Made by a program: the position numbers and the translations under genes
Shown here: piece after piece, positions 6,187-43,886 of the stretch
How the letters are laid out: every line of letters begins with the position of its first letter
Position numbering within the stretch: the stretch's first letter is position 1
Notes under the pieces: generated by a model
Databases searched by the model: none
What the model saw: only the letters and a program-made list of their open reading frames with translations
What the model was told of the DNA's origin: nothing
Assembly: GCF_050920415.1 (NCBI RefSeq)
Contig: NZ_CP169309.1
DNA length: 64,000 bases
DNA from: Escherichia coli
GTDB taxonomy: Bacteria; Pseudomonadota; Gammaproteobacteria; Enterobacterales; Enterobacteriaceae
Strand: one strand, 5' to 3'

Positions 6187-6197
6187 GGTGACGGTAT
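6187..6197. repeat. GGTGACGGTAT, candidate integrase arm-type site (left arm)
   Basis: Same 11-mer in right arm at 45803-45813. Confidence 0.3.
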
Positions 6198-6211
6198 TAC
6201 CTTAAAGGTAT
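6197..6211. promoter_or_regulatory. TTACC-N5-GGTAA family palindrome (TTACC TTAAA GGTAT), ~45 bp upstream of int
   Basis: Member of 13-copy intergenic motif family. Confidence 0.45.
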
Positions 6212-6253
6212 ACTCTCATACCGTCATGAAAATGGTTTCTATACGGGTGAATT

Positions 6254-7504
6254 GTGCTTACCGATACAAAATTAAAAAACCTCAAGCCGCAGGACAAACT
6301 GTACAAGGTCTCCGATCGTGACGGGCTGTATGTAGCTGTGCTTACGTCAGGCACGGTCTCGTTTCGCTATGACTACCGTATCAACGGTCGCCGCGAAACA
6401 CTGGTAATCGGGCAGTATGGGCGTGACGGTATCAGCCTGGCAGAAGCGCGAGAAGAACTGATTGCTGCAAAGAAGCTGCTTAAAGCAGGCCAGTCGCCGG
6501 CTGCGGCTAAACGTGACGGTATCAAAAAGATTCGTGGTGCCGAGACGTTTGCGGTACATACCGACAGTTATATGAAACACGTCATCCTGGCTGACAGTAC
6601 CCGCGCAATGAAGCAGGCGGTGATCGACCGTGACATACTTCCGGTTCTTGGCAACAAAATGATGGCTGAAATTACCACATCGATGGTTCGTGATTTGTGT
6701 GACCGGATTGTCGAACGCGGTGGTCGGGCAACAGCAGTACAGGCCAGGGAGATCATCAGCAGCGTATACCGTCACGCCAATGACCGTGGTCATGGTTTGT
6801 TTAATCCTGCGGCTGACATTAAACCTTCGTCTATCGCCATATTTAAACCACGAGAGCGAACACTGACACCAGAAGAAATTGGCCTGTTCTTCCGCACGCT
6901 GGATGCCATTGGTGCTATGGGCACTATGAAAATGGCTTTAAAGCTGGTGCTTATCACTATGGTTCGTAAAGGCGAATTCACCAATGCAACGTGGGATGAA
7001 ATAGATTTTAAAAAATGGACATGGACAATTCCTTCAGACCGCATGAAGGGAAGCCGGGCGCACGTTATTTACCTGCCTAAACAGGCACAGGATATATTGG
7101 TTGGGTTGCAGATGTGCGCTGGTGGAAGTGAATATCTGGTTCCTGGTCGTTACAATTTCCGGAAGCCATTATCTAATGCCGCGCTGAACTCTCTGATCGA
7201 CAGAACGGTGAAAATAATAAATGAAGATGGTGAGCATATTCAGGGCTTCACCGTACACGATATGCGCCGTACAGCCAGTACGTTGTTGCATGAGGCTGGT
7301 TATCCTTCAGACTGGATTGAAAAGGCTCTGGCACATGAGCAGAAAGGTGTGCGCGCCGTATATAACAAAGCGGAATACGCCAGACAGCGCGCCTACATGT
7401 TGCAGCAGTGGGCCGATATGATTGATTCCTGGATTAACGGGGAGCATACGGATCTGATTCCGTTCTCCCCGTCGAAGTTTGAGAAGTGGATGGCGGGGGA
7501 ATAA
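6254..7504 (+). CDS. int: tyrosine integrase (P4-like family)
   Basis: 416 aa, GTG start; N-term LTDTKLKNLKP...RDGLYV (DUF4102-like arm-binding), C-terminal catalytic domain with HDMRRT... Confidence 0.9.
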   Translation: MLTDTKLKNLKPQDKLYKVSDRDGLYVAVLTSGTVSFRYDYRINGRRETLVIGQYGRDGISLAEAREELIAAKKLLKAGQSPAAAKRDGIKKIRGAETFAVHTDSYMKHVILADSTRAMKQAVIDRDILPVLGNKMMAEITTSMVRDLCDRIVERGGRATAVQAREIISSVYRHANDRGHGLFNPAADIKPSSIAIFKPRERTLTPEEIGLFFRTLDAIGAMGTMKMALKLVLITMVRKGEFTNATWDEIDFKKWTWTIPSDRMKGSRAHVIYLPKQAQDILVGLQMCAGGSEYLVPGRYNFRKPLSNAALNSLIDRTVKIINEDGEHIQGFTVHDMRRTASTLLHEAGYPSDWIEKALAHEQKGVRAVYNKAEYARQRAYMLQQWADMIDSWINGEHTDLIPFSPSKFEKWMAGE

Positions 7505-7507
7505 CGT

Positions 7508-7702
7508 TTAATAGTTCTGCTGATTTTCTTCCATCTCTGCTTCTGCTGCCAGTGATTCAATTTTGTTTTCGAATATTGCTGACAGTGTTGCAAATTCAGC
7601 ATCAGTGACGGCGGGAATTGGAACAAACCTGATCCCGCTGTGTGCAAGCATGTTTGCAGTTTCAAGGCATTTTCTTAAATCTGCTGGTGATGCCCTGTTC
7701 AT
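7508..7702 (-). CDS. hypothetical small protein, translationally coupled to methyltransferase
   Basis: ATG at 7702 overlaps upstream stop (ATGA); 64 aa MNRASPADLRKCLETANMLAHSGIRF... Confidence 0.4.
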   Translation of the reverse strand: MNRASPADLRKCLETANMLAHSGIRFVPIPAVTDAEFATLSAIFENKIESLAAEAEMEENQQNY

Positions 7703-8349
7703 GCAGCACGCTCCCGCCCCTGGTTGTCTGTTGGTGACAGCGGAGAATTGCTGAATGCATTTGTTAATCCGCCAATATCCAACGCGTATCCAGGGTGTAG
7801 TTGCACTGCCGGGTCTTCGCACTGATTACCCCAAACATCGAAGCCATGAGACGACTGGCGGGCGAATAGTTCAATGCGAGAAACATCGCCTAACAATTGC
7901 ACAAGTTTTTCACGAACGACATCTGGTTTTCTTGAGTGCTCAAGCCGCGGTGCGGTAAATGACTGAACGATCCCTGCATTAATGCGCGGAGGTAGTTTTC
8001 CCTTTACCGCAAACAGGCAATCTTCACTATTGGCGCGAGTCATGTGTCCCATACCCATAACAAGTTTATCTGGTTGTCGACTACCACATTTTATCCACGT
8101 GAAGCCCTTCATCGTCATCAGACGGAATCCCCAGGCTTCAACAACTTTTAGTGCTTCGAGTGGTTGTGTTGGCACCCACCACATGGCCAACAGACAGTTT
8201 TCATCGGCCAAATCCCACACAGGAAGGCGGCAGATATCCAGCACACTCATAACCGGATATTTAAAACCGGCACCGCGATTACCATCTGCGGCTTTGTCCC
8301 GGTATACCCAGGGTGGATCTGCATAGATTAGTGTGTATTTCTTAGTCAT
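7699..8349 (-). CDS. MT-A70 family N6-adenine DNA methyltransferase (orphan)
   Basis: MTKKYTLIYADPPW... DPPW catalytic motif; no adjacent restriction enzyme. Confidence 0.8.
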   Translation of the reverse strand: MTKKYTLIYADPPWVYRDKAADGNRGAGFKYPVMSVLDICRLPVWDLADENCLLAMWWVPTQPLEALKVVEAWGFRLMTMKGFTWIKCGSRQPDKLVMGMGHMTRANSEDCLFAVKGKLPPRINAGIVQSFTAPRLEHSRKPDVVREKLVQLLGDVSRIELFARQSSHGFDVWGNQCEDPAVQLHPGYALDIGGLTNAFSNSPLSPTDNQGRERAA

Positions 8350-41940: not shown

Positions 41941-41950
41941 TGTTATGCGT

Positions 41951-41967
41951 GGGGAGCAATGCTCCCC
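41951..41967. terminator. hairpin between convergent tail-fibre and acyltransferase genes
   Basis: ggggagc-aat-gctcccc; no clear T-tract on either strand. Confidence 0.3.
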
Positions 41968-41975
41968 ATCATCAA

Positions 41976-43835
41976 TTAAAAAATAAATGGCTTGTCATTT
42001 TTTAATTTTTTCCCAAACTCCCTTGAGCCTTCTAGAGTGAAATGACTATTATCAAAGTAAAGATAATCACCTTTAGTAGAAAGGATGTCACAATTCATTG
42101 ACTTTCCGCACTGCTCGGCAAGCGTATCTATGTATTTATACGAATGCTGGTTGCTACCAAGATAGCCTTTTATCGTATTGTTAATTTCAACTCTACTATT
42201 GTCATAATACTTTTTAGAGTATTTATTTATCCCATCAACTGTGTTTACGCCAGATTTAAAAGCAGACTTAATTATTTCCATTGGCTGTGCCGTAAACTTC
42301 ATCTTAGGCCCAAATACAATAACTTCTCCTTTAGTCCTCTCCTGTATTTTGCCTATAGAGTAAAGCATCCCGAACAGATCGCCAACGCCATAATCATCAT
42401 GAAGGATTATAATGTTAGCTTCAGCTATGGCTGGAGATGAGATTACGTCATTGAATATTTTTTTGCACTTTTCTACATAGGGCATGTCGTTTGGTGTATA
42501 ACCAAAGTTTGAACATAAGTTTGTAGTTCTTATATAAGTTATATCACCCTTCATCCCATTTTCAGTAAGTGCATAAGTCAGATCTATGCCATGAGAATTA
42601 CCGATTATTACTATTTTTTTGTCACCTGTCTTCGGTACAGGGTGAGGCTTGTCTCCATCAACCCAATACCTGTTCATTTGTTCTTTTAGCTGTTCGGACG
42701 TCATTGTGGCAAACGAAAACCTTGATGGAATTCCAGATAGCAATAGTACAGCGAAGCACAAACCAACTACACCACCTACAGGTAGCACGATTGAAGTTAA
42801 TTCATTCAAGGACCTGCCGTTTTTAAATTTTGAAAGTGCCTTTCTTGAAGGGTTTTCAATTAAATAAAATGATGCGGCACCAATAAGAATTGATAAGGCA
42901 ACACCTGATACTGTATAAACCATATCATCCATCTTATTCATTGACATATATACAACTATGGGCCAGTGAACCAGATATACCGAGTATGAAATTTTCCCAA
43001 CCCATTGAGATAATGCATTATCAAGTAATAGGTTATCTTTACATCCAAGATAAATGACAAAGAAAGTAGAAACGACTGGTATTAAGGCAAGATACCCAGG
43101 CCACTTCATTAAGCTGTTAAGCAAGACTATCCCCGATACTGCAAAGGCTATGGCAATCCATCTAAATACAGCAGTGCGTTTTGAATTTTGTATAGTAGGA
43201 AGAAGGTAGGCAAGGCCGCCAGCCAGCATCTCCCAAGCTCTGCTTGACAGAAGATAAAATGCAGCGCCCTGATTATTATAAGAAAGATACACTGAGGCAG
43301 TAAATGATATAATTGCAAGGATGGCAACAACATACCTTATATGCTTAGCGCCCAATAGCTTTGCAATCACCATCATTATGATTGGATATACCATGTAAAA
43401 CTGCCACTCTACAGAAAGCGACCATGTATGAAGAAGCCATTTCTGCTTTGATGCAGTATCAAAATAATCAATGCTATGGTAATACTCAACGTTTGAGAAA
43501 AATAAAAGGCTACTTCTTACGTGTTGAGCCAGGTATTCATATTCAGAAGGTAAAAGAATGAAGTAACCAACTATCAGAACAGCAACTGAAACTACAGTTA
43601 AAGCAGGTATAATTCTTCTTGCCCTATCAAGATAAAATCCTAACAGTGAAAAGTTTCCATTAGATATCTTTGTGTAAATTATTCCAGTCATCAGATACCC
43701 TGATATAACAAAGAATATATCTACGCCTGAAAATCCACCAGAGAACCCTTTGACTCCGAAGTGATAAAGGACAACTGCCATAACAGCAATAGCCCTAAGC
43801 CCGCCTATATCTGTTCTGTATTTTAAAGAAGACAT
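41976..43835 (-). CDS. O-antigen acyltransferase (acyltransferase-3 membrane domain + C-terminal SGNH-like domain, OafA-like)
   Basis: 619 aa; N-terminal multi-TM with ...AVVLYHF...DIFFVISGYL...; lysogenic-conversion candidate. Confidence 0.75.
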   Translation of the reverse strand: MSSLKYRTDIGGLRAIAVMAVVLYHFGVKGFSGGFSGVDIFFVISGYLMTGIIYTKISNGNFSLLGFYLDRARRIIPALTVVSVAVLIVGYFILLPSEYEYLAQHVRSSLLFFSNVEYYHSIDYFDTASKQKWLLHTWSLSVEWQFYMVYPIIMMVIAKLLGAKHIRYVVAILAIISFTASVYLSYNNQGAAFYLLSSRAWEMLAGGLAYLLPTIQNSKRTAVFRWIAIAFAVSGIVLLNSLMKWPGYLALIPVVSTFFVIYLGCKDNLLLDNALSQWVGKISYSVYLVHWPIVVYMSMNKMDDMVYTVSGVALSILIGAASFYLIENPSRKALSKFKNGRSLNELTSIVLPVGGVVGLCFAVLLLSGIPSRFSFATMTSEQLKEQMNRYWVDGDKPHPVPKTGDKKIVIIGNSHGIDLTYALTENGMKGDITYIRTTNLCSNFGYTPNDMPYVEKCKKIFNDVISSPAIAEANIIILHDDYGVGDLFGMLYSIGKIQERTKGEVIVFGPKMKFTAQPMEIIKSAFKSGVNTVDGINKYSKKYYDNSRVEINNTIKGYLGSNQHSYKYIDTLAEQCGKSMNCDILSTKGDYLYFDNSHFTLEGSREFGKKLKNDKPFIF

Positions 43836-43871
43836 AATCGCTATCGTTTTGAGTAAGATGCATTAATGATA

Positions 43872-43886
43872 TCACCTTTAGGGTAA
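43872..43886. promoter_or_regulatory. operator-like palindrome TCACC TTTAG GGTAA
   Basis: Divergent region between acyltransferase and lysis cassette. Confidence 0.5.

Follow-up and report, generated by a model that had tools for sequence, protein, structure and literature searches.

The 64,000-nucleotide stretch of Escherichia coli contig NZ_CP169309.1 (RefSeq assembly GCF_050920415.1) analysed here, referred to as the window, contains a prophage that is ~98% identical to Escherichia phage phiV10 and falls within the genus Uetakevirus, the epsilon15-like phages. It is bounded by direct repeats of the same sequence as the attP core reported for phage ZX5 (PMC9782041). Copies of a 15-bp palindrome, TTACC-N5-GGTAA, stand at the head of every transcription unit of this prophage, flank the repressor gene rep and show an operator geometry at the early promoters. 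The original prediction, drawn from the sequence of the window, had placed 13 copies in intergenic prophage DNA and read them as the contact points of a single repressor acting on every operon directly rather than through a lambda-style cascade. The sites and the genes around them are collected in Table 1.

The palindrome is real and its recurrence is statistically overwhelming. The window holds seven exact copies against 0.04 expected, a number reached in 0 of 100 shuffles, and 16 copies when one mismatch is allowed (1.01 expected); 13 of these 16 lie inside the prophage, where ~0.6 would be expected. Together with one degenerate copy carrying two mismatches, the prophage has 14 sites (seven exact, six with one mismatch and one with two), distributed over nine site-bearing regions. 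An unbiased count of all 5-N(0-12)-5 palindromes ranked TTACC/N5 first in the prophage, and 37 sites from four relatives gave the extended consensus A-TTACC-wwWww-GGTAA-T, with an A/T preference in the flanks. With the terS start placed at 18490, as in epsilon15, all 14 copies fall within the non-coding part of the 39,855-bp prophage, which amounts to 2,612 bases (6.6%), and the probability that the 13 copies with at most one mismatch would all be non-coding is ~4e-16. The claims that the motif is far beyond chance and exclusively intergenic were thus borne out. The list of 13 positions needed amendment. Most of its entries stand, but those at 6197, 13086, 39566 and 43872 deviate from the consensus at one base and that at 13055 at two, the copy given at 13422 starts at 13423, and a one-mismatch copy at 18473, over the terS ribosome-binding site and start codon, had been missed. 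The host part of the window, said to lack the motif, indeed contains zero exact copies; it does contain three one-mismatch matches (51403, 60545 and 63924), of which alignment to an annotated E. coli chromosome places two within pdeF and focB and one at the start of arsC. We treated these as chance matches and dismissed a host regulon.

Table 1. Prophage, palindromic sites, predicted promoters and regulatory genes in the window
Feature	Position	Strand	Remarks
phiV10-like (Uetakevirus) prophage	6047..45901		inserted at 3′ end of guaA
attL	6047-6063		17-bp direct repeat, ATTGAGTGGGAATGATT
Operator-like int site TTACCTTAAAGGTAT	6197..6211		GGTAT, one mismatch; centre 50 bp upstream of int start
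Putative promoter-proximal PL operator	12264..12278		exact; abuts -10 hexamer, centre near +1
Predicted leftward early promoter PL	12278..12306	minus	TTGACA-17-AATTAT; consensus promoter scan, 10/12 consensus positions
Putative distal PL operator	12326..12340		exact; at about -62; 62 bp centre-to-centre from 12264
rep, repressor homologue	12398..12982	minus	194 residues, two helix-turn-helix domains; homologous to SPC32H Rep (PDB 5D50)
Putative operator, rep side of divergent rep-cro region	13038..13052		exact
Degenerate middle rep-cro putative operator GCACCTCATAGGTAA	13055..13069		GCACC...GGTAA, two mismatches
Predicted rightward early promoter PR	13083-13111		TTGTTA-17-TATTAT; consensus promoter scan
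Putative cro-side operator TTACCTTATGGGTGA	13086..13100		GGTGA, one mismatch; in -35/spacer region of predicted PR
Cro-like small regulator	13137..13367	plus	phrog_35, transcriptional repressor
Single site GTACCTTAAAGGTAA	13423..13437		GTACC, one mismatch; ahead of p42-dnaT-P replication operon
Putative distal operator, DUF1064/eae/ead operon promoter	15369..15383		exact; at about -62
Putative proximal operator, DUF1064/eae/ead operon promoter	15431..15445		exact; covers -10/+1 region
Two adjacent terS sites	18455..18487		18455-18469 exact; 18473-18487 one mismatch; 18 bp centre-to-centre
Single site	21620..21634		exact; between p06 (gp3)/portal operon and leftward tRNA-Arg/p03 unit
ant, antirepressor homologue	39232..39489	minus	89% identical to SPC32H Ant
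LexA box AACTGTATGTTTATACAGTA	39509..39528		directly upstream of ant; one mismatch to pattern searched
Single site TCACCTGAAAGGTAA	39566..39580		TCACC, one mismatch; divergent region between ant and tail-fibre gene
Single site TCACCTTTAGGGTAA	43872..43886		TCACC, one mismatch; between leftward O-antigen acyltransferase gene and rightward lysis cassette
attR	45885-45901		17-bp direct repeat, ATTGAGTGGGAATGATT

At the early promoters the sites take up positions expected of operators. PL is situated between its two copies, and a middle promoter for the DUF1064 operon (TTGATT-17-TTTAAT, read by eye) likewise lies between the copies at 15369 and 15431; the clustering of three copies between rep and cro and of two before the leftward operon was as first described. 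Overlap with ribosome-binding sites had been proposed for two copies. It holds for the one at 15431, which overlaps the DUF1064 ribosome-binding site (GAGGTAAatcATG, with the ATG at 15449), but not for the one at 12264, where the minus-strand gene has its GAGG 6 nt beyond the site. The site at 13423 comes after the cro terminator (13389-13408) and the terS pair after another (18418-18435), the second terS copy covering the ribosome-binding site and start codon (ATG at 18490). A further terminator (39209-39226) precedes the ant/tail-fibre region; since terminators stand ahead of several site-bearing regions, each unit looks insulated and separately controlled. The int site lies within the attP arm, nested in an inverted repeat (GACGGTA...TACCGTC).

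We also noted that terS is annotated in phiV10 from a TTG at position 41 (phiV10 41-121 corresponds to 18409-18489 of the window). That start would place the terminator hairpin and both palindromes within the terS coding sequence; the ATG at 18490, equivalent to the epsilon15 start, is more likely.

Subsequently, the sites were compared by position, from site centre to gene start, with those of six relatives: phiV10, epsilon15, Tyrion (Enterobacter), SPC32H (Salmonella), BUCT711 (Klebsiella) and BUCT554 (Enterobacter). All six carry the motif at matching positions: 50 bp upstream of int, 98 bp upstream of the p06 (gp3)/portal operon, 113 bp upstream of the lysis cassette, 112-114 bp upstream of the tail-fibre gene, and 10 and 28 bp upstream of terS. 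The leftward early operon has two sites (three in epsilon15 and SPC32H), the rep-cro gap two or three, the replication genes one and the middle operon two. The 98-bp distance is kept in seven of seven genomes and the 113-bp distance, measured to the start of p27, in all genomes that yielded the site, while the GGTAT variant at int recurs at the identical distance in six of six relatives. The orthologue of the degenerate copy at 13055 is exact in epsilon15 and SPC32H. In gene-anchored alignments of six genomes both half-sites are invariant, unlike the 5-nt spacer and the upstream flank. Across nine genomes, 14 pairs with the 62-bp spacing were counted, a pairing rule that the present analysis adds. 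Furthermore, TTACC/N5 ranks first by the same unbiased count in three more distant prophages (Cronobacter, Serratia and metagenomic). The statement of the original prediction that the motif heads every transcription unit is upheld.

The regularity of these distances bears on the idea that the repeats are recombination sequences at module boundaries, or recognition sites for restriction-modification, with no part in transcription. The sites do lie at junctions of gene modules whose neighbours vary among relatives (conversion genes, tail fibre and ead block), and a bipartite 5-N5-5 layout resembles the target of a Type I restriction system. Recombination, however, has no need of fixed distances of 50, 98 and 113 bp, of 62-bp pairs, of overlap with -10 and -35 elements or of a three-site cluster between rep and cro, and sites for restriction would be expected in coding DNA too, not just in the non-coding 6.6% of the prophage, so that we regard such an origin as highly improbable. 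A role at the RNA level, in which the palindromes would form small hairpins at the 5′ ends of messages, either for processing or as translational operators that could, for instance, mask the ribosome-binding sites at 15431 and 18473, is about equally remote. Two sites do overlap ribosome-binding sites, the epsilon15 record places RNase III sites near some of the site regions, and a stem of 4-9 base pairs could form at each unit. Yet the hairpins are predicted to be weakly stable (-1 to -7 kcal/mol), the variants TCACC, GTACC, GGTAT and GGTGA alter one arm only and are uncompensated, and the half-sites are invariant rather than covarying. Several sites, such as the distal PL copy, also lie upstream of the predicted transcription start, and the motif reads identically on both strands while the units it precedes run both ways. 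We rejected the hairpin reading on the weak predicted folds and the uncompensated natural variants.

The epsilon15 RefSeq record (NC_004775.2) carries seven features labelled "protein_bind: repressor / lysogeny", all of the form ATTACC-N5-GGTAAT, which match five of the nine site regions described here: terS, p06 (gp3), tail fibre, PL and the middle operon (resolvase). The annotated orthologues are at 12-27 for terS, 2931-2947 for p06/gp3 and 19895-19911 for the tail fibre; the epsilon15 sites at rep-cro, lysis and int and the second middle-operon site are present without annotation. The motif is therefore known, genus-wide and already annotated as repressor-binding in epsilon15, and our observation is a rediscovery, not a new system.

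The product of the adjacent gene, Rep, matched among solved structures only the SPC32H repressor (5D50 and 5D4Z), with E = 4e-42 to 5D50 over residues 1-190 (phmmer). It is 100% identical to phiV10 p40, whereas overall identity to its epsilon15 and SPC32H counterparts is ~42%, rising to 54% over the N-terminal domain. Six of six aligned repressors, whose identity elsewhere drops to 42%, share an unchanged presumed recognition helix, NLVNRW, in keeping with the unchanged half-site. Its precomputed Pfam family matches are helix-turn-helix only, with no C-terminal S24 self-cleavage domain of the kind found in SOS-cleavable repressors of the lambda CI type, and NCBIfam returned only a weak RstR match. 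Homologues with altered recognition helices (NLVSRW, NLINRW and NLISRW) were found by protein search, and the three variant-helix prophages examined all retain TTACC-N5-GGTAA; a viral-contig scan for Rep variants yielded only copies 100% identical to the query. Ant is far more conserved than Rep relative to SPC32H (89% versus 42% identity), and the LexA box upstream of ant is kept in the six-genome alignment. The SPC32H repressor is described as a tetramer that binds palindromic DNA through pairs of DNA-binding domains drawn from different dimers and is disabled by tetrameric Ant (PMC9638917, PMC9986798), and a review has Ant produced after LexA cleavage (PMC7380047). Rep is not a self-cleaving repressor of the lambda CI type, and its inactivation most likely goes via the LexA-controlled antirepressor.

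Taken together, the epsilon15 annotation, the adjacent SPC32H Rep homologue and the geometry at the early promoters make one repressor touching every unit the best reading of the sites, as the original prediction had proposed. Most likely the palindromes are operators of Rep, a non-cleavable repressor of the SPC32H/epsilon15 type, released through a LexA-Ant-Rep pathway. In a lysogen, all nine promoter regions would have Rep on their (A)TTACC-N5-GGTAA(T) sites, with one palindrome read by each pair of N-terminal domains in the tetramer, as described for the SPC32H homologue. At PL and the DUF1064-operon promoter, the 62-bp pairs bracketing the promoter, with one site near +1 and the other near -62, would block RNA polymerase directly, and a single tetramer could hold both sites of a pair, which the recurrent 62-bp spacing fits. 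At PR, one site would act in the -35/spacer region and two further sites upstream towards rep. At terS, portal, ant/tail fibre, lysis/acyltransferase and int, the sites follow closely on terminators or precede conserved promoter blocks, so that each unit would be silenced on its own. Upon induction, DNA damage would lead to LexA cleavage and Ant expression, and binding of Ant would make Rep leave all operators together.

Several points weigh against this model. The repressor-site annotation in epsilon15 may itself be a prediction only. The centres of the late-unit sites lie, in a by-eye reading, ~70-80 bp upstream of the likeliest -10 elements, which is atypical for simple occlusion. Other regulators of the phage, the Cro-like protein among them, could also bind these sites. 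The int site, which always carries the same mismatch and overlaps the attP-arm repeats, may serve recombination, and it has no repressor annotation in the epsilon15 record. Covariation between the Rep helix and the half-site proved unusable as a test, the half-site being identical in every relative examined. Within the operator map, the int site and the late units are the weakly supported members.

The late units share a second conserved element. A block of the form CATAT(A/G)TGGTT-N7-TAATAA/TAATAG/TATGAT lies 40-55 bp downstream of the putative operator at p06, the tail-fibre gene and the lysis cassette (21676-21700, 39610-39636 and 43919-43942) and is nearly invariant across six genomes; weaker copies were seen at 15415-15425, at 13445-13455 and in the PL spacer (12287-12296). 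It has no recognisable -35 element, and in the consensus promoter scan terS, p06, the tail fibre and the lysis cassette all lacked a convincing sigma-70 promoter. The bare 10-mer of the block, CCATATATGG, is not enriched in the window (28 copies versus 23.5 expected), and support for the block comes only from the cross-genome alignments. It may be a late promoter that depends on an activator. The early-right operon ends in a gene (18021-18368) for a conserved protein of phrog_536, "transcriptional regulator", for which no Pfam family was matched, leaving a helix-turn-helix domain without independent support. Given a late block without a -35 element and a regulator gene ending the early-right operon, direct repression and positive late control may coexist, and the contention that repression operates in place of a cascade was not established. 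At the late operons Rep may act at a distance or as an anti-activator against a late activator, possibly the phrog_536 protein; if true, this would be a mixed circuit of direct repression and cascade, which has not yet been described for Uetakevirus.

These same proteins are the candidates for an alternative in which the sites serve mainly another phage protein and Rep is limited to the sites round its own gene, the Cro-like protein acting as lytic-phase regulator of all units or the phrog_536 regulator as middle/late activator. Both proteins are encoded in the prophage and conserved, the late-unit sites lie upstream of putative promoters in a position compatible with activation, and in lambdoid phages Cro and CI use common operators. 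Nevertheless, the same half-sites occur in repression geometry (+1 or -35/spacer) at PL, PR and the DUF1064-operon promoter, the late sites are listed as the repressor's in the curated record of epsilon15, and the phrog_536 protein lacks a Pfam match. The Cro-like protein may well share operators with Rep, but this would add to the Rep model rather than replace it. We consider this alternative improbable, though less so than the recombination or hairpin explanations.

Returning to Rep, the half-site is identical down to ~42% repressor identity in prophages of Escherichia, Salmonella, Enterobacter, Klebsiella, Cronobacter and Serratia. Because it is the same for every Rep homologue examined, the genus might be cross-immune at the DNA level. 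That genus-wide cross-immunity of this kind exists, with specificity shifted to the Rep-Ant interaction, and that Rep in addition acts at a distance or as an anti-activator at late operons, is a speculative combination that we hold to be rather unlikely.

The closest known systems are epsilon15 and SPC32H (NC_004775.2; PDB 5D50, 5D4Z), which share with the prophage the genus, the gene order and the palindrome at matching positions and gene distances; the prophage also encodes homologues of the SPC32H Rep and Ant, the latter with a LexA box. The prophage differs from them in the low identity of Rep, in the degenerate middle rep-cro operator and in having two sites rather than three at PL. Lambda and P22, with their CI-Cro switches and three operators at each of OR and OL, likewise have a divergent rep/cro region with three operators between and further operators at the leftward early promoter; unlike them, the prophage has putative operators also at the middle, late, lysis and int units, pairs spaced 62 bp apart, and induction that would run via Ant.

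The functional comparison drawn in the original prediction with P1 C1 and phiC31, to which L5 may be added, is fair. In P1, the C1 repressor controls separate units through many dispersed operators, and an antirepressor takes part in induction or immunity. The likeness is a functional analogy only, for P1, a plasmid prophage, has a more complex immunity circuit, its operators are asymmetric 17-bp sequences and its C1 is unrelated in sequence, whereas the sites here are palindromic and Rep matches the SPC32H repressor. The stoperators bound by gp71 of L5/L1 and the inverted repeats bound by the phiC31 repressor are likewise spread in many copies over the prophage in short intergenic gaps. L5 stoperators are asymmetric and orientation-dependent and stop elongation within transcribed DNA, in contrast to the symmetric sites at promoters found here; phiC31 repressor sites are palindromic as here, but are bound by a protein of another family in hosts of another phylum. 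Binding to multiple operators is also described for mycobacteriophage repressors (PMC1934351).

The discovery value of these observations is small, the prophage being a near-copy of phiV10 and the Rep-Ant pair having been studied structurally in SPC32H. Their value lies in annotation: the records of phiV10 and other phiV10-like phages that we retrieved have no operator features, and the present map covers nine regions and 14 sites. Six of the operator 15-mers gave no match in a full-text literature search, and the ZX5 paper predicts promoters and describes no operators (PMC9782041).

A second conserved palindrome, GTGACATGTCAC, marks the ends of operons. Its three copies in the window (18365-18376, 20630-20641 and 39197-39208) are placed where the early-right operon's last gene has its stop codon, behind terL and behind the final structural gene; the latter two adjoin a terminator hairpin, and the early-right copy is ~40 bp upstream of one. 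All six relatives contain the 10-bp core, TGACATGTCA, two to four times each, mostly at matching operon ends.

Further features of the prophage were noted. An IS2 element (35703-37026; orfA 35742-36152, orfB 36110-37015), whose TnpA and TnpB both exceed the curated cut-offs of their NCBIfam matches, disrupts the homologue of the virion structural gene phiV10 p20 and splits it into 35229-35702 and 37027-39039; virion production by the prophage is probably abolished. The leftward early operon contains, between the p38 and p39 homologues, a minus-strand gene for a 344-residue protein (11052-12086; phrog_1376, function unknown) that is absent from phiV10; the Serratia relative has a gene (9536-10582) that resembles it in size and position. 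The receptor and conversion module (39685-43835) also departs from phiV10: similarity of the tail fibre is limited to the N-terminal ~252 residues (68% identity), and the low-G+C conversion gene (41976-43835) encodes a 619-residue acyltransferase of the size seen in SPC32H and Tyrion, unlike the 338-residue Oac of phiV10. A phage-borne tRNA-Arg gene (anticodon TCT; 21221-21297, minus strand) lies between terL and the portal operon, and because it overlaps the open reading frame annotated as p04 in phiV10, that reading frame is probably spurious.

The host flank from 46000 to 64000 (yfgH ... ppk-ppx, purMN, upp-uraA, hda, arsC, bepA, focB) reaches only ~97.4% identity with its best match among 5,426 complete E. 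coli genomes, and the host may represent a divergent Escherichia lineage.

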